Positions 5,952-54,690 of a stretch of DNA of 64,000 nucleotides are shown piece after piece (the stretch's first letter is position 1; each line of letters opens with the position of its first letter). The translations under genes and the position numbers were made by a program. This DNA comes from Octopus sinensis (Eukaryota): contig NC_043006.1 in the NCBI RefSeq assembly GCF_006345805.1, positions 86,800,001-86,864,000 of the forward strand, read 5' to 3'. A model generated the notes under the pieces. That model did no database searches and had not been told where the DNA came from. It saw nothing but the letters and a program-made list of their open reading frames with translations.

Positions 5952-5956
<5 letters not shown>

Positions 5957-5990
<34 letters not shown>

Positions 5991-6084
5991 CATATATATT
6001 ATATATATATATATTATATACATATATATATATATATATATTATATACATATATATATATATATTATATATATATATATATATG

Positions 6085-6132
<48 letters not shown>
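5957..6132. repeat. (TA)n microsatellite
   Basis: Direct reading. Confidence 0.95.
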
Positions 6133-6134
<2 letters not shown>

Positions 6135-6136
6135 CA

Positions 6137-6529
6137 TGACGCATATTTGCCATTTCAATATGGCTACCCCTAAGGGTGGATGCTACTGTAGTTTTTAGCC
6201 CCAGGAGGACACACTCCTCCAGCTGGCCATAGACACACTTTCTGTGCCCTGTCAGTATTTGCAAAGGGAAGTCATCCTTCCCGTCTTCAACTTATGATAC
6301 ACACGGACTCGAGTTTCGAGGTATTGACCTCTCGTCAGCGTGTGACAATCATAGTTGTCGGCGAGAATTAGATTTCCTTCACAAATACTTATACTTTTTC
6401 CAGCGTCCACTGTCGCTGATATTGAAAAAGTGAAATCAAACAATGATAAATATCAAAGTGAGTTATATACAGTAGCGGTAACACATCGTGACGCATATTT
6501 GCCATTTCGATATGGCTACCCCTAAGGGT
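6137..6529 (-). mobile_element. Retrozyme/PLE-like non-coding unit, 352-bp period, ~1.1 monomers
   Basis: 41-bp direct repeat tgacgcatatttgccatttc(a/g)atatggctacccctaagggt at 6137-6177 and 6489-6529; contains HHR at 6300-6344; abuts (TA)n. Confidence 0.75.
6300..6344 (-). ncRNA. Type I hammerhead ribozyme, canonical core
   Basis: Minus strand CACACG-CUGACGA-GAGGU caau ACCUC-GAAA-CUCGAG-UC/CGUGUG: 6-bp stem I, 5-bp stem II, palindromic stem III ACUCGAGU, GUC triplet. Confidence 0.93.
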
Positions 6530-6534
6530 ATACA

Positions 6535-6752
6535 TCAGATCGCCATGTTGATTCGTTAGCTACTGCACGCATTTTTTTTCTCTCCTTCTTTCTGTGTTTT
6601 TCTCTCTCTGTGTATCTTTCTGTTGAAGAGCGTAGGCTCGAAACGTTAAAGACTTGTTTTATTTATATTTCCTGAGCGCCATACTAATACAATTGTTCGT
6701 TTGTTTTCCACCTGCCTTCGTCTTTTGTTTATTTTCATAAAGCTTCCCGTCA
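6535..6752 (+). mobile_element. Short PLE pseudo-LTR-like element with variant minimal HHR
   Basis: Homologous to 34228-34413 and to the 3' end of the GIY-YIG remnant at 45940-46045. Confidence 0.65.
6615..6652 (+). ncRNA. Minimal hammerhead-like motif with variant core
   Basis: UCUUU-CUGUUGA-A-GAGC guag GCUC-GAAA-CG-UU/AAAGA; stems I and II pair, stem III palindrome ACGU; core differs from CUGANGA. Confidence 0.6.
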
Positions 6753-6754
6753 TC

Positions 6755-6778
6755 ATATACATATATATTATATATATG

Positions 6779-6816
<38 letters not shown>

Positions 6817-6882
6817 ATTATAATATATACATATATATATATACATATATATATATTATATATATACATATATAATATATAC

Positions 6883-6913
<31 letters not shown>

Positions 6914-7065
6914 CATATATATATATTATATATATTACATAATATTATATATCATATATATATATATATTATATATATACAATATATATTATATTATACA
7001 TATATATATATTATATATATATACATATATATATATATTATTATATATATAATATATATATATAT

Positions 7066-7116
<51 letters not shown>

Positions 7117-7293
7117 TATATTATATACATATATATATATTCATATATATATATTATATATACATATATATATATATACATATATATATAATACATATAT
7201 ATATATATACTATATATATATATCATATACATATATATATATATACATATATATACATATATATTATATATATTACATTATATATATATATAC

Positions 7294-7340
<47 letters not shown>

Positions 7341-7463
7341 TATATACATATATATACATATATATATACATATATATACATATATATATAATATATATAT
7401 ACATATATATACATTATATATACATATATACACATATATATATATACACATATATATATATAC

Positions 7464-7516
<53 letters not shown>

Positions 7517-7521
7517 ACATA

Positions 7522-7552
<31 letters not shown>

Positions 7553-7562
7553 CATATATATA
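6755..7562. repeat. Long imperfect (TA)n/(TACATA)n microsatellite
   Basis: Direct reading; irregular indels suggest low consensus accuracy. Confidence 0.95.
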
Positions 7563-7882
7563 TGTAAAAGTTTTTAATTCTCATCTCACTAAATTTATCC
7601 AGCTATTGTGTATCTAGTACACTTTTCGCCTTGAATGTAATGATATATGTATAATATATGGCGTGTACTGGTACACCGGCGATTATAATTAATTTTATTG
7701 TATCGCATTATCTTTGTTTACATATTCTCTCGATAAATTTCTGACCGTTAGACGATTATACCACAATCCCCTATTTTGTCGGGTTTGTTCGGAGTCTGCG
7801 CAGTGTTTTGAATAGTTTAGAAAGAGCATTTCGATAGACGCACATGGATCTATTGGTATGGTCTTTCCATCATTAACAGGAA

Positions 7883-7953
7883 TCTACTGAGGAGCCAGCC
7901 TGAGTAAATAAATACTATTTTTATACTGAATTTGGCGAAACTGCAGTATAAGA
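7883..7953 (+). ncRNA. Type I hammerhead ribozyme, array copy 1
   Basis: UCUA-CUGAGGA-GCCA...UGGC-GAAA-CUGCAG-UA/UAAGA; one U missing in stem I relative to copy 2. Confidence 0.85.
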
Positions 7954-8282
7954 AAAGTTAAGTTTGTAAAAGTTTTTAATTCTCATCTCACTAAATTTAT
8001 CCAGCTATTGTGTATCTAGTACACTCTTCGCCTTGATGTAATGATATATGTATAATATATGGCGTGTACTGGTACACCGGCGATTATAATTAATTTTATT
8101 GTATCGCATTTATCTTTGTTTACATATTCTCTCGATAATTTCTGACCGTTAGACGATATACCACAATCCCCTATTTTGTCGGGTTTGTTCGGAGTCTGCG
8201 CAGTGTTTTGAATAGTTTAGAAAGAGCATTTCGATAGACGCACATGGATCTATTGGTATGGTCTTTCCATCATTAACAGGAA

Positions 8283-8355
8283 TCTTACTGAGGAGCCAGC
8301 CTGAGTAAATAAATACTATTTTTATTACTGAATTTGGCGAAACTGCAGTATAAGA
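8283..8355 (+). ncRNA. Type I hammerhead ribozyme, array copy 2
   Basis: UCUUA-CUGAGGA-GCCA[AU-rich extension]UGGC-GAAA-CUGCAG-UA/UAAGA; 5-bp stem I, palindromic stem III ACUGCAGU, GUA triplet at 8348-8350. Confidence 0.92.
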
Positions 8356-8546
8356 AAAGTTAAGTTTGTAAAAGTTTTTAATTCTCATCTCACTAAATTT
8401 ATCCAGCTATTGTGTATCTAGTACACTCTTCGCCTTGAATGTAATGATATATGTATAATATATGGCGTGTACTGGTACACCGGCGATTATAATTAATTTT
8501 ATTGTATCGCATTTATCTTTGTTTACATATATATATATGTATACAT

Positions 8547-9328
8547 ATCATCATCATCATCATCATCGTTTAACGTCCGCTTTCCATGCTAGCATGGGTT
8601 GGACGGTTCAACTGGGGTCTGGGAAGCCCGAAGGCTGCACCAGGCCAGTCAGATGTGGCAGTGTTTCTACAGCTGGATGCCCTTCCTAACGCCAACCACT
8701 CCGAGAGTGTAGTGGGTGATTTTATGTGCCACCGACACAGGTGCCAGACGAGGCTGGCAGACGGCCACGCTCGGATGGTGTTTTTTTATGTGCCACCGAC
8801 ACAGGTGCCAGACGAGGCTGGCAGACGGCCACGCTCGGATGGTGTTTTTTTATGTGCCACCGACACAGGTGCCAGACGAGGCTGGCAGACGGCCACGCTC
8901 GGATGGTGTTTTTTTATGTGCCACCAACACAGGTGCCAGACGAGGCTGGCAGACGGCCACGCTCGGATGGTGTTTTCTTATGTGTCACCGACACAGGTGC
9001 TAGACGAGGCTGGCGGACGGCCACGCTCGGATGGGTTTGTTACGTGCCCTCAGCACGGAGGCCAGTCATTGCGGTACTGGCTACGGTCACGTTCGGATGG
9101 TTTTCTTATGTGCCACCGGCACTGGTACCACAAGGATACAAATTCCATTGATGTTCATCTATTTTGATTTGGTTCGATTTGATTTGATACGATTCGATTC
9201 GATTCTCACTTGCCTCAACAGGTCTTCACAAGTGTCACAAGAAGGAAGGTATGCACAGGTGGACTGACTACGTCCCAGGTAGGGGCCATGGATTATGGCT
9301 TCACTAGTCTTGCCGGCCATTGCGCTCC
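8547..9328 (-). mobile_element. RTE-tail type retroposon with a 64-bp minisatellite (5 copies, ~8720-9040)
   Basis: Unit start atgtgcc/atgtgtc at 8724, 8788, 8852, 8916, 8980; (CAT)n tail at 8547-8567. Confidence 0.85.
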
Positions 9329-17191: not shown

Positions 17192-17735
17192 ATCATCATC
17201 ATTGTTCGACCGTGGTCAAGACAATGAAATTTACCATGCTACGCCAGACTTCACGGTCCATCATAGCATTACGGAGGTCCTGTTGCTGGATGCCTGTATC
17301 CCTGGAGATTACATCAGGGTAGGAGAGTGTGCGCCTTCTGGTATTGCGAGTAGATGGCTTCCAAGGGAGAAGAGTAGAAATTGCCTCGTTTTCAGCTCTA
17401 CAACAATGTCCAGCAAACTGGACTCTCTTACCTTTCACAAGAGATGACACAGGTGGTAGTTTCCCATATATTTGCATTTTGGTTGGATGACGCTTCCACG
17501 AGAGATTTTGAGCTCTCATAAGGAAGCGAGTGTAGGTTCCATCCAACTGCCTCTCAAGCTTCTTTGATAACGTCCAGGTTTCTGAGCCATATAGTAGAAT
17601 TGGTTCGACTGTGGCTTTGAAGATTTCAAGTTTGAAGTCTCTACTTAGATTTGATGACCAGATCTTATGCATGTCATTACAGGCTGACCAGGCCATACTC
17701 TTTCTAGTTAGAAAATCTTTTCCAGATGATGATAT
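17192..17735 (-). mobile_element. 5'-truncated RTE-type LINE (RT C-terminal region)
   Basis: ORF 17199-17696: FKATVEPILLYGSETWTL, FAGHCCR, DREVWRSMV; short (GAT)n tail. Confidence 0.9.
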
Positions 17736-17884
17736 GTATGACTATATGATGTATAGTGTGACTGAAAAAATAATCAACCAGCCAACTAACTAACACTTAT
17801 ATTGGCCATTATTAAAAGTTGCCAAGGACAACTTTACCTTTCATCCCTTGAATTATTATTGATTTTCTTCTTCTTATTATTATT

Positions 17885-29083: not shown

Positions 29084-29490
29084 CATCATCATCGTTTAAC
29101 ATCCGTTTTCCGTGCTAGCATAGGTTGGATGGTTCGACCGGGGTCTGGGAAGCCAGGAGGCTGCACCAGGCTCCAGTCCGATCTGGACTACAGCTGGATG
29201 CCCATCCTAATGCCAACCACTCCGTGAGTGTAGTGGGTGCTTTTAACGTGCCACCGGCACGGAAGCCAGTCAAGGCAGCGCTGGCATCGGCCACGTTTGG
29301 ATGGTGCTTTTTATGTGCCACCGGCACAGAAGCCAGTCAAGGCGGCGCTGGCATCGGCCACGTTTGGATGGTGCTTTTTATGTGCCACCGGCACAGGTAT
29401 CACAACTACTATTTCCATTGATATTTATTTCGATGTTCATGTACTTGACTCAATAGGTCTCCTCAAGCACAGCGGGTTGTTCTGAAATCC
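29083..29490 (-). mobile_element. RTE-tail type retroposon with two near-identical ~62-bp subrepeats
   Basis: Same family as 8547-9328. Confidence 0.8.
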
Positions 29491-32319: not shown

Positions 32320-34195
32320 CGCATGATACCCACAAGGCTATGATGAATTAAATAATTTACATATGGCTATGTTAAAGCACAAGCGTTCTCAAAGGCATAT
32401 AAAATCTTTGATAGATCTTAAAATATTCGAGAATGTTTGCATAGACTTACAATTAGATGCATGTAAAAATCAAAGCATACAACATCATAATGAGAAAGTC
32501 AGACGAAACAGATCCATTCTGCAATGATTGATCGATGTTGTTATTTTTTTAGGCTTCCAGGAATTATCGTTTTGGGGTCATTTTGAATCTGAAGGCTCTA
32601 ATAATAGTGGAAATTATAAAGAACTCATATATGTAAATGGAAAGTTATCTAGATACAGCTTCTATCTTCACCGGTCTGTCAAACAGAATTCCAAATGACT
32701 TGATCGATGCAATTCATGAAGTTATGTTGAATGAGATGCAAAAGGAAATCGAGCAAGCTAAGTTTGTTTCTATTTTTGTTGATGGGACATCTGATGCCTC
32801 AGCATATTAACAACTGTCAACAGTTTTACGTTATGTTACAGAAGACTGTGCAACGAAAGAACGATTTATCGGTTTTAGTGATGTTAGTGAAGATCGATCT
32901 GCAAATGCTTTATCTGAACATGTTTTTAAATGCATTGAGACGTGGGAATGTGGAAACAAATTGATTGCACAGACATATGATGGTGCCACTACAATGGTAG
33001 GACAACTAAATGGGTTACAGGCAAAAGTAAGAAAGAAATATGAATGTGCGATCTTTATTCATTGTTGTGCCCATATCCTAAATTTAGTTCTTTCACAATC
33101 ATGCTCTGCTATGAAAGAATGCAAGATATTATTTTGTACAATAAACGGACTGAGTACATTTTTTATGAAATCACCAAAAAGGGCTAATGCATTAGATAAC
33201 ATTGTTAAAAAAAAGATTTCCGAAGGCAACAGCAATGGAATTACTTCTCACGGCTTATTATTACCACAAAGGAAAATTATAATTTCATAATCAGCCTTTT
33301 TGAGCACATCATTGAAAATCCTGAAGCATGGGATGATACCACCATAAATTCAGCAATTGGATTCTTACACACTTTAAAAGTTCCTGATTTCTTATTTTTG
33401 TTCAGTATTCAGTGAGATTTTTTCTTTTACTGACATCTTATTTAACATCCTCCAGAGTAAAAATCATGACATAGTGTATTGTAAAGAGCAAACAGATAAA
33501 ACTAGAACTGTATTCGAAAACAAACTTGATAATTTTTCAATCTTTTATATGTTAGGGGAAAAATATGGAGTCGATGCAGAAATTGGAATTCAGAGACCCA
33601 AGAATATATCTATTGAGCCCCAACGACATTATAAAATGCTTTATAACAAAATTATCAGTACAATAGTTGACCAAATAAAAGCACGATATTCATTCTTAGA
33701 AGAGTTTAAATTCATGGAACTTTCGAATTTCAACAAATTTGATGAGTATTGCAAATAATTTAAAAATCATGGGTACTATTTAAGAAGAGTGGTCCCGGTG
33801 CACGCACCCAAGCATCCCACGCCAGCTAGTCGTGACTAGTCGATCCTTACTTTGTGTTTTATTTATTTTATTTAAAACATTATTTACTTTGTGTTTTTGT
33901 GTTTTATATATTTTGTTTAAAAAATTTATTTACTTTGTTAGATAGTCGTAGGATTGACTAGTCACGACTAGCCAGGGCAGATGCGTGAGCACACGCAACA
34001 GGACCACTCTTCTTAAATAGTACCAGGGCGAGGTTTTTTTTTATTCTAGGTCATACGGGGGTGATTGCATATTCAGAATCTCCCATATGTAAATCATAGG
34101 AATTCGAAAATTTTATAACTGAAAAATTGCCGGGGGTGGGGTGGGGCAAAGAAATTCATTGCATGCCCAACCCTGGAAGTCACTGCACGCCACTG
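32320..34195 (+). mobile_element. hAT-superfamily DNA transposon remnant (ZMYM1-like transposase), 5'-truncated
   Basis: FVSIFVDGTSD, ERFIGF, AQTYDGATTMVG, FIHCCAHILNLVL; stops and frameshifts; right end cactgcacgccactg (reverse complement CAGTGGCG..., hAT-type terminus). Confidence 0.9.
33772..34024. mobile_element. MITE with ~70-bp imperfect TIRs nested in the hAT element
   Basis: ggtactatttaagaagagtggtcc...ctagtcgtgactagtc versus gactagtcacgactag...ggaccactcttcttaaatagtacc. Confidence 0.85.
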
Positions 34196-52649: not shown

Positions 52650-54690
52650 CACTCTCCATTACCACATAAACCACTATTGCAAACAACAATGGTGACAACA
52701 CAGTTCCCTGATGCACACCAACTTTCACAGCAAAATCCTTCGACAGCTCTGATCCAATTCAAACTTTTGTCTTTAACCCCTCACCCAAACTCATCACTGC
52801 CCTCACTATTACCTTTAGTACACCTCTCTTCATCAATGCCCACTCAGTCACCTTCCTTGGAACCCTATCAAATGCCTTCTACAGATCAATGAAGCATATG
52901 TACAACCCCTTCCCCTTATCTCAGTACTCCTCCTGCAATCTCCTTACAATGAACAATGCATTTATTGTCCCCCTTCCTGGCATAAAACCAAAAAGCATCT
53001 CGTCCACATCCACCCCTTTCCAAATTCTCCTCTCCAACACCCTTTCCACTATCTTCATCGCATGCTCCAATAACATCACTCCCATATATGCCCCACAGCT
53101 CATTGCATCCCCCTTTGCCTTTCTTGTTGTCATTTCCTTCATTGCTTCCACTACTTCCTCCTGACTAACCCTCTCCACTGGCCCCTTTACCACAACAACT
53201 TCCACCCTCTGATCGCATTCATTCTCCTCATTCATAATTCCCTCCATATACTCCTTCCAAACCCTTCCCCTGTCCTTCTCACTAAAATTCAACCTTCCAT
53301 CACTCACCCTCATGCATCTTCCTCCCTCAACATCTCTTCCATCTTTTTTCATCTATTTAATAAACCTAAACACTCTATCTGGGTTCTCATCCAGCCTGCT
53401 CAACTTCTCCCCAGCTTCCTTCCTCATAGATCTCACAATCACCCTCTTTGCACGATTCTTCATACCTGACTCTCATTTGCTCAGTCCTATTATAACATAA
53501 AGCTTTGTGCACTCCCTCCTTCCTCACTATCGCATCACTCACCTCCTTGTTCCACCACTACATATCTCCTCAATCCCTCCTTCCTTTTGTCCTTCAACAC
53601 ACTTCGTCACATGCCTTTAATACCCCTTCTTTAAAAGACTTCCACAAATCCAGTGCAACTCCTGAATTCTCTCCTCAAACCATGCTTTTGTTTCTTCTTC
53701 CTTCAGTTTCCACACCTTTCTCTTCTCGACCATTCCCTTTCTCAGCCCAAGTCAGCAACCACTAACCTGTGCTGCAACTCCCCTGGTATTGTCTTCACAT
53801 CTTTCTGATACTTTTTGTTCTTCTTGCCAACCATCACAAAATCAATCTCCGTCTCATTCCCGTCTGCACTGAAAGTCACCTTCCATTTCTCTGTTTTCCT
53901 AAACCACATGTTCACCACACACAACTCTTTCTCATCACAAAACTCCAACAGCATCCTTCGTTCCACATTTCTCTCCCCATTTCTGTTTCCCCCATGCACA
54001 CCCTCAAAGCTCTGGATCCATTTCTCAACATGTCCATTAAAATCACCCAAGCCCAAAACTAATTCATCTATCTTTTGTAAGTCCCACTCATTTGCTATTT
54101 CAGCAAAGAACTGCTCTTTCTCAGTGATCCTGCTTCCATTCTGTGGATCATACCCACAAATCACCCTTACCACTTCTTCCTCAAATGCTAACACTACTGT
54201 CATCACTCTGTCTCTCTTTCTCCTGACCTCCACCACCTTCTCACAGATTTCTTCTTTCACCAAAACTCCCACACCTCCAGTCCCCTTGGTATTTCCTGAC
54301 CACCACATCTTGTACCTTCTTCCCTTGACCCACCATAAATTTTGCACCCTGGCCCCTCCACCTAGCCTCCTGCACACAGCTCACATCCACCCTTATCTTT
54401 ATCAATTCTTCACATACCTTAGTTCCCCTTCCACGCAAACTGCCCACATTCCAACTTTCCAACCCTAACCCTAACACCAAGCTTCTCGTCAGGCCTTCGG
54501 CCATCATAAGGCAAGTCATGCTTGCGCAAACTAGAATGAGGGCTTGCACCTTCCTTTTTGAGGTAGGCAGCACCCTAACCTTTGGGTTGGCTGGTGCCCA
54601 TTCTCCTTAGCTATCATGAAGCTTTTTTGGAGCTGAATTTTCTACAGAGAGCATTCCCTTGCTTACCCCCAACCTCAGTTTCTAGACATG
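52650..54690 (-). mobile_element. RTE-clade LINE with 5' region, AP endonuclease and partial RT (internally deleted)
   Basis: SWNVGSL, CVQEARW, GGVGVLV, GDFNGHV, EIDFVMV, QHRLVVAD; RT motifs LLEHAMKIVER and FGFMPGRGTINALF. Confidence 0.92.

Follow-up and report, generated by a model that had tools for sequence, protein, structure and literature searches.

A 352-nt hammerhead retrozyme family in Octopus sinensis whose insertion ends resemble those of Penelope-like elements

Animal retrozymes without long terminal repeats (non-LTR retrozymes) have been described with units of 350-390 nt in Mytilus, 331/353 nt in axolotl and 225-245 nt in Acropora (PMC7229834). Retrozyme repeats carry no motif that would indicate a helper (PMC7761336), and their spread and helper are treated as an open question in PMC7229834, PMC7761336 and 10.64898/2026.07.22.740005, all of which propose Penelope-like elements (PLEs) as helpers and leave the mechanism open. 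Insertions of PLEs themselves have been reported to be partial tandems truncated at the 5' end, commonly accompanied by an inverted arm and carrying a 30-40 bp tail on one end only, and Naiads favor (TA)n as target (10.1101/2021.04.23.441226). In vitro, a PLE protein, predicted to be dimeric, cuts AT-rich DNA and extends both strands, with synthesis beginning at two neighboring positions inside the RNA that mark the limits of the genomic tail, and hammerhead cleavage is not required (PMC11167929). Here, we examine a 64,000-nt stretch of Octopus sinensis contig NC_043006.1 (positions 86,800,001 to 86,864,000; hereafter, the window) that holds a copy of a hammerhead retrozyme with a 352-nt unit, family A. 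Our findings make it very probable that family A works like a non-autonomous PLE, with a PLE endonuclease and reverse transcriptase (RT) priming inside the retrozyme RNA at (TA)n.

The insertion ends, numbered from the predicted hammerhead cut, carry this reading. We collected 78 segments with at least 85% identity, leaving out lower-identity sister segments, and dropped one at a locus edge. Among the remaining 77, the 3' end lies at site 1 (+169-174) in 46, at site 2 (+215-223) in 25 and elsewhere in 6. None of the 77 lies within 10 nt of the predicted cut, as a preliminary description of this locus, made from its sequence, had anticipated by placing the junctions away from the cleavage site. 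The circularly permuted copy ends that the same description expected were not found: 3' ends are fixed at two sites, and the variation lies in the 5' ends, which are scattered round the unit. Its proposed comparison of permuted with fixed ends therefore returned neither of the outcomes foreseen but a third, which resembles PLE-style internal priming. TA abuts 67 of the 71 fixed-site ends. The view of the preliminary description that an RNA intermediate was read beyond unit length agrees with the 58 of 71 fixed-site arms that are longer than one unit, in a sample biased to long copies by the queries.

The pairing of arms follows the same two sites. Two outward arms are present in 23 of 52 insertions, and 19 of these combine site 1 with site 2, none combines two ends of the same site and 4 are unclassifiable (p 2e-6 against 50:50 pairing). 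Single arms (n=29) end at site 1 in 25 cases and at site 2 in 4. At the 25 sites reached solely by internal queries, 37 of 40 ends fall at the two sites. The distance between site 1 and site 2 is 43-46 nt, corresponding to a PLE-type tail. With two fixed 3' ends, a tail on one end only, 5' truncation, inverted arms and an AT-rich target, the family-A ends show the tail signature that internal priming leaves in PLEs. An excess of 5' ends near the cut, or of lengths slightly above one unit, was unusable as evidence, both being biased by the queries.

As to its class, family A is, judged by its sequence, an animal non-LTR retrozyme of a known class and a new sequence family. Each unit carries a canonical type I hammerhead, the tandem units of 352 nt fall within the range of about 170-400, and the monomer is non-coding, with a GC content of 43%, a longest ATG frame of 38 aa and a strongly self-paired predicted structure. 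As in the animal non-LTR retrozymes of PMC7229834, the hammerhead is of type I with a weak stem III, the 352-nt unit is non-coding and has a GC content under 50%, tandem and dispersed copies occur together, the circle is predicted to be self-paired, and PLEs with minimal hammerheads coexist. By contrast, two fixed 3' ends, the pairing of site 1 with site 2 in inverted arms and (TA)n targeting are undescribed in the accessible portion of that account. For those retrozymes, expression and circles have been shown, whereas those of family A are putative. Other classes agree less well with the unit. It contains no open reading frame (ORF) with RT plus GIY-YIG, as an autonomous PLE would; its motif is of type I rather than type III and its redundancy differs in length among copies, unlike plant-type LTR retrozymes; and no Rfam match up to E 5 to a tRNA-, 5S- or 7SL-derived short interspersed nuclear element (SINE) was obtained in 6000-9000 of the window, where such an element is further opposed by the variable 5' ends.

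Family A is a young dispersed and tandem repeat family, 95-99% identical. In the 2.7-Gb genome, the 393-bp query gave 1,585 first-look candidates, a query from the hammerhead region 1,046 and a further internal query 801; among the best 40 of the 1,585 that were scored, full-length matches are 95-100% identical and many are spaced by 352 bp. The junction of site 1 with (TA) occurs 389 times on the plus strand (reversed control, 0), from which about 780 insertions on both strands are estimated by extrapolation, the 872 minus-strand matches being multiply counted. Arms range from 0.07 to 7.1 units, with head-to-tail units joined at exactly 352 nt without coding DNA, and old or short copies are under-sampled through the use of top-scoring matches. 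Regarding target duplications longer than 4 bp, the ends lie in (TA)n, and TA is also present on the 5' side in 13 of 28 single-segment sites. Sequencing runs from eight organisms (coded A-H, record quality uncertain) contain words of the 393-bp stretch, which suggests that family A is common to related species. Further retrozyme families with canonical hammerheads were seen at L028, L133, L134, L139, L147 and L169, comprising sisters 70-90% identical and two remoter groups, some of which have the anatomy of two arms and a tail.

The resemblance to PLE insertions (10.1101/2021.04.23.441226; PMC11167929) extends to 5' truncation, partial tandems, the inverted arm, the one-ended tail, AT-rich or (TA)n targets and 3' ends that lie downstream of the hammerhead cut and not at it. 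Family A departs from PLEs in having no ORF, a canonical hammerhead, a tail of 43-46 nt and no detectable homology to two tested PLE pseudo-long terminal repeats (pLTRs). A comparison of the sequence surrounding the end-sites in family A, PLE C (see below) and a neighboring 402-bp hammerhead family, with TA flank included in the PLE C part, revealed no evident fold in common.

Two PLE families, B and C, were considered as helpers. PLE B has 10,933 first-look candidates genome-wide, and its full-length copies (L120, L126, L127) hold open frames of 835-1009 aa with an RT and a GIY-YIG match of 16.9 bits against a curated cut-off of 22.6. The label Neptune rests on motifs read by eye (RT, a CxxxxCxxC linker and GIY-YIG) against the description in Craig et al. 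The family was gathered by protein search, DNA searches with the PLE 3' end having returned 4 and later 0 matches (common words skipped), and Pfam detected nothing on the PLE B fragments of L033. A second (tail) 3' end of PLE B was not seen in the loci examined, which were selected by ORF and under-sample inverted arms. PLE C has 9,648 candidates with frames of up to 850 aa; 38 of its 43 ends lie at two sites 42 nt apart, and 9 of its 10 outward two-arm insertions combine site 1 with site 2. Its pLTR (L202-L226, L252-L258) carries a minimal hammerhead with a 2-bp stem II, as read by eye. PLE C is a candidate helper of family A, and a candidate only, because neither the B nor the C pLTR resembles family A.

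A mechanism compatible with these patterns would begin with copies holding at least two hammerheads, which would be transcribed, self-cleaved and ligated into 352-nt circles, a route that has been shown for other retrozymes. A PLE protein, which is probably dimeric, would then nick both strands of a (TA)n tract and start cDNA at +170-173 on one strand and at +215-219 on the other; internal priming would remove the need for an RNA 3' end, which a circle lacks. Synthesis would often pass one unit and halt variably, yielding the observed pattern of single insertions and inverted two-arm insertions with one end of each kind. We lean slightly towards a single circular monomer as the template of both arms and all units, and the identification of the helper as the Neptune-type PLE family C stands about evenly balanced.

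Sequence variation bears on the template. The p-distance is 0.008 within arms, 0.009 between opposite arms and 0.019 between sites, and units agree at four polymorphic columns in 370/375 comparisons within arms, in 258/262 between opposite arms and in 17,547/32,976 (53%) between sites. Alleles present at four or more sites occur in all covering units in 55 of 63 cases. Of 158 single-site alleles in multi-unit columns, 145 are confined to one unit, 9 occur in several units and 4 in every unit. Since concordance is high within and between opposite arms and inherited alleles are in most cases found in all units, each insertion goes back to a single haplotype, and a new variant must eventually spread from one unit to all. 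A circle is a simple route for this step, one that homogeneous multimers, template jumps and DNA-level expansion can also provide, so that haplotype sharing fits one circular template without proving it.

Several observations weigh against the PLE-like reading or its circular template. In 4 of 72 cases the 5' end falls at +2 to +4 of the cut (p 0.055, query-biased), which hints weakly at cleaved linear templates, and a homogeneous linear multimer, or template jumps between cleaved monomers, would give equal homogeneity. Among the sequencing runs with family-A words, none is on record as RNA; assembly of four runs to contigs gave one 383-nt contig and one joint leading back 352 nt (run X5), which fit a circle and a tandem equally. 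The 43-46-nt tail is slightly above the 30-40 nt of the literature, and no significant similarity was found between the monomer and the pLTRs of the two PLE families compared, B and C. In the case of Xenopus retrozymes, 10.64898/2026.07.22.740005 arrives at the same helper class, on the basis of co-occurrence and, for many retrozymes, pLTR homology, while our basis is insertion-end anatomy without pLTR homology. One of the 50 sites, where a family-A arm meets a PLE C coding fragment within 1 bp, speaks for PLE C as helper, but it is a single case for which a later insertion plus deletion is possible. The Rfam Hammerhead_1 model aligns over its full length to 6300-6344(-) with 32.2 bits (E 2e-5), under the gathering score of 34, and the list of matches at gathering threshold for the whole window is consequently empty. 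Finally, the 90 loci analyzed, merged to 50 distinct sites, come from best-scoring matches (40 scored per search), much of them from two contigs.

Three alternative origins can be set against this evidence. The preliminary description derived the locus from a circular (or multimeric) RNA; unit homogeneity within insertions supports that much, and the genomic data are compatible with both circle and linear multimer. PLE-driven insertion from a linear multimeric transcript, or from cleaved monomers linked by template jumps, with circles absent or a by-product, is accordingly a serious possibility, if short of probable: RNA left unprocessed is the main substrate in vitro and hammerhead cleavage is dispensable there (PMC11167929), arrays of up to 7.1 units are possible sources, and the few 5' ends near the cut point the same way. 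It has to account, however, for at least six haplotypes that each occur as homogeneous multi-unit arrays, for some alleles that are restricted to a single one of the 50 sites yet present in both arms, findings that call for a step from monomer to multimer, and for the conservation of the hammerhead. That family A consists of pLTR fragments, solo or degenerate, from an autonomous PLE outside the sample, and is not an independent retrozyme, would explain ends and targets like those of PLE pLTRs and agrees with the derivation of retrozymes from pLTRs in 10.64898/2026.07.22.740005, but this origin is improbable given head-to-tail joins at exactly 352 nt, the absence of coding DNA, a hammerhead that is canonical and not minimal, and the nature of the sole ORF beside a sister family, an inserted derivative of a long interspersed nuclear element (LINE) with target duplications. 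An ordinary satellite or a DNA-level duplication, with the 41-bp repeat of the window copy as an LTR-like or target repeat, can hardly be entertained; unequal exchange can homogenize tandem arrays, yet family A is dispersed at all 50 sampled sites, with fixed 3' and variable 5' ends, inverted arms and TA targeting, and the 41 bp are no fixed feature.

The window itself raises an alternative for the helper, as its retrozyme arm lies back-to-back with a PLE B segment, in opposite orientations and with 2-4 nt between them. The locus would then be a single event in which a PLE B particle used one strand to prime retrozyme RNA and the opposite strand to prime its own, making B the helper. The tightness of the join speaks for this, as do the two outer ends, both at proper 3' ends against (TA)n, and the youth of both elements. 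We nevertheless consider it unlikely: an A-B join occurs at one of 50 sites, both window arms end at first sites and so break the rule of pairing site 1 with site 2, no second (tail) end is present among the listed PLE B ends, and 19 two-arm insertions have haplotype-matched arms. At L028, moreover, family A abuts a separate, older two-arm insertion, so that independent hits in one TA tract do occur; the window join may be one event or two such hits.

Family A and related retrozymes are in turn the target of a LINE. Described targets of the Tx1 clade include other transposons, with Tx1 inserting into Tx1D, Tx1-Mar into Mariner-N4 and Keno into U2 (PMC4494074). A search with the join pattern returned 5 cases in which an element is joined to family A or to near sisters of it, against 0 in the control, and the joined elements are LINEs with APE, RT and zf-RVT domains, for which the nearest solved structure is human L1 ORF2. 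A search with the LINE 3' untranslated region, using a query from an A-lineage copy, covered 30 loci (four already known, two pairs apparently duplicated), and in 23 the LINE is followed by the retrozyme sequence just 5' of the hammerhead, while in 7 it is not. The A lineage accounts for 18 of the 23, including 6 with at least 97% identity to the window monomer. Five more diverged LINE copies have another common, unidentified flank. The target duplication at L169 is approximately 25 bp (LINE at L169:2275-7595, + strand; full set, L162-L201). Like the Tx1-clade LINEs of PMC4494074, this APE-RT-zinc-finger LINE, along with an ORF1-only relative (see below), inserts into a multicopy element at a fixed site, and both target duplications and tandem re-insertions are seen; unlike in those examples, the element hit is a hammerhead retrozyme, with insertion 32-39 nt ahead of the core in families that differ considerably in sequence. 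With its APE endonuclease, RT, C-terminal zinc finger, CCHC ORF1 and target preference, the label Tx1 may be applied by analogy. At L133, L167, L168 and L171, the upstream retrozyme sequence is absent and the end lies at a PLE-type site, and these composites may have moved by the PLE route.

The same site is used by an ORF1-only element of 440 aa with a CCHC knuckle and 27,659 candidates, whose atlas neighbors are ZCCHC3-like and zf-CCHC. It is presumably HAL1-like, by analogy. Many intact frames of 440-460 aa, 54-84% identical, occur at L130-L161 (ORF L130:886-2205, - strand), together with mixed tandem arrays; for the L130 ORF, there was no protein database hit at E 0.001 and Pfam gave only a sub-threshold hit. 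The hammerhead core lies 32-37 nt after the 3' end of the element at 18 of the 25 loci with a visible end (30 loci examined, 5 without a scored end), and 3 more are tandem re-insertions. Several insertions have retrozyme-sequence duplications of 11-18 bp on both sides, and the element targets the same site in at least three retrozyme families. A subfamily at L157, L158, L160 and L161 has other targets. L130 was also considered as a 2-kb protein-coding ancestor of the retrozyme and rejected, its ORF being the ORF1-only LINE derivative, set between duplicated retrozyme sequence.

Taken as a whole, we tentatively propose that a dimer of a Neptune-type PLE starts synthesis at two internal sites of one 352-nt hammerhead circle and pastes paired inverted multimers into (TA)n, and that a dedicated L1/Tx1-like LINE lineage with an ORF1-only satellite homes just 5' of the hammerhead in several divergent retrozyme families, at times leaving as PLE-mobilized cargo. 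If true, this three-tier chain explains the retrotransposition of a template without a 3' end, and a LINE targeting ribozyme repeats would be a new target class for site-specific retrotransposons. Family A provides predictions at the nucleotide level, namely that each DNA strand of a (TA)n target is primed at one of two positions, +170-173 or +215-219. It also provides a candidate helper whose open frames are long, and for comparing circular with linear templates an in vitro PLE assay format exists. The strict pairing of site 1 with site 2 in haplotype-matched arms constrains the PLE mechanism itself. Family A, the end analysis and retrozyme-targeting LINEs were not found in the open literature surveyed (subscription papers, Repbase and supplements lay outside this scope).

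The ribozyme of the window copy was read as the preliminary description had it: a canonical minus-strand hammerhead with all core bases intact and the cut predicted after GUC, at 6306|6305. The minus-strand core runs through CACACG (6344-6339), CUGACGA (6338-6332), GAGGU caau ACCUC (6331-6318), GAAA (6317-6314), CUCGAG UC and CGUGUG (6305-6300), with a stem III of 2 bp capped by the palindromic CUCGAG. In 13 hammerheads of related families in the genome, two-sided changes affect 12 of 15 pairs, and 96.9% of 191 cells are paired, a value reached by 0 of 500 shuffles and lost in slid controls; the alignment was selected and the structure written by the analyst, and kinship of rows inflates such counts. 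These data indicate that the fold is not due to chance. Loop 3 is palindromic in most of the 13 rows (CUCGAG, CUAUAG, CACGUG, CAUG), which suggests cleavage as a dimer, by analogy with other retrozymes. At sites not selected on the hammerhead, a comparison redone after an earlier one had been biased by the hammerhead-region query, variation in the hammerhead is 2.5-3.5 times lower than in the rest of the unit (6/2284 against 111/16890, p 0.02; 5/945 against 101/5480, p 0.002). Lower variability and covariation together indicate a ribozyme under selection. In folding predictions, the single-strand minimum free energy structure of the 56-nt core did not yield the active fold (z -1.5), which had to be imposed; the circular monomer reached -114.8 kcal/mol (z -6.5; linear, z -7.0), and the active hammerhead lies 5.9 kcal/mol above its minimum.

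The features of the window locus are collected in Table 1. The 41-bp repeat at a spacing of 352, reported in the preliminary description, is present and 40/41 identical. Because the window copy is a site-1 arm whose 5' truncation, at 6529, falls at +129 of the previous round, the repeat is an incidental redundancy, set by the gap between a fixed 3' end and a random 5' truncation. With one hammerhead only, the window arm could not itself release unit-length RNA and is likely a dead end. The adjacent PLE B segment, absent from the preliminary description, has a minimal hammerhead at about 6623-6648.

Table 1. Features of the retrozyme locus and its surroundings in the window.
Feature	Position	Strand	Remark
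(TA)n target tract at the retrozyme 3' end	5954..6133	.	
Family-A retrozyme arm, 1.12 units of the 352-nt monomer	6137..6529	-	3' end at 6137, in end-site 1 (+169 from the predicted cut)
41-bp direct repeat, first copy	6137..6177	.	
Type I hammerhead	6295..6351, core 6300-6344	-	stem I with bulge and distal helix; stem II of 4-5 bp
Empty LINE target site (about +294 onward)	6342..6364	-	occupied by the L1/Tx1-like LINE in other family-A and sister copies
End-site 2 (+215 to +223)	6435..6443	-	putative second start
Internal copy of end-site 1 (+169 to +173)	6485..6489	-	putative reverse-transcription start
41-bp direct repeat, second copy	6489..6529	.	1 mismatch
pLTR, the 5'-truncated 3' end of autonomous Neptune-type PLE B	6534..6750	+	217 bp, 99-100% identity to full-length copies
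(TA)n tract at the PLE 3' end	6755..7563	.	
402-bp hammerhead family	7563-8530	+	

The neighboring 402-bp family has 1,017 candidates, is separate from family A and contains a long loop-2 insert. Its arms have one fixed end about 175-180 nt beyond their own predicted cut, against TA, at 24 of 25 loci (overlaps unmerged), the remaining one being cut by the locus edge. The claim that the two families share nothing outside the ribozyme core is almost right, save for a match in 13 of 14 positions to ATTTATC.TTGTTT, located where arms of the 402-bp family have their fixed 3' end and, in family A, at end-site 2; alone it has a BLAST E of 0.44 and is notable solely by its position. This common end motif is a hint that the two families may share a helper.

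Elsewhere in the window, GC-rich tandem units of 64-67 bp occur within a probable SINE-like repeat at 8720-9117 and 29236-29396. By eye, 17199-17741 (-) resembles a fragment of a LINE RT C-terminus, 32811-33290 (+) a fragment of a hAT-like transposase, and 52712-54468 a LINE endonuclease/RT fragment.
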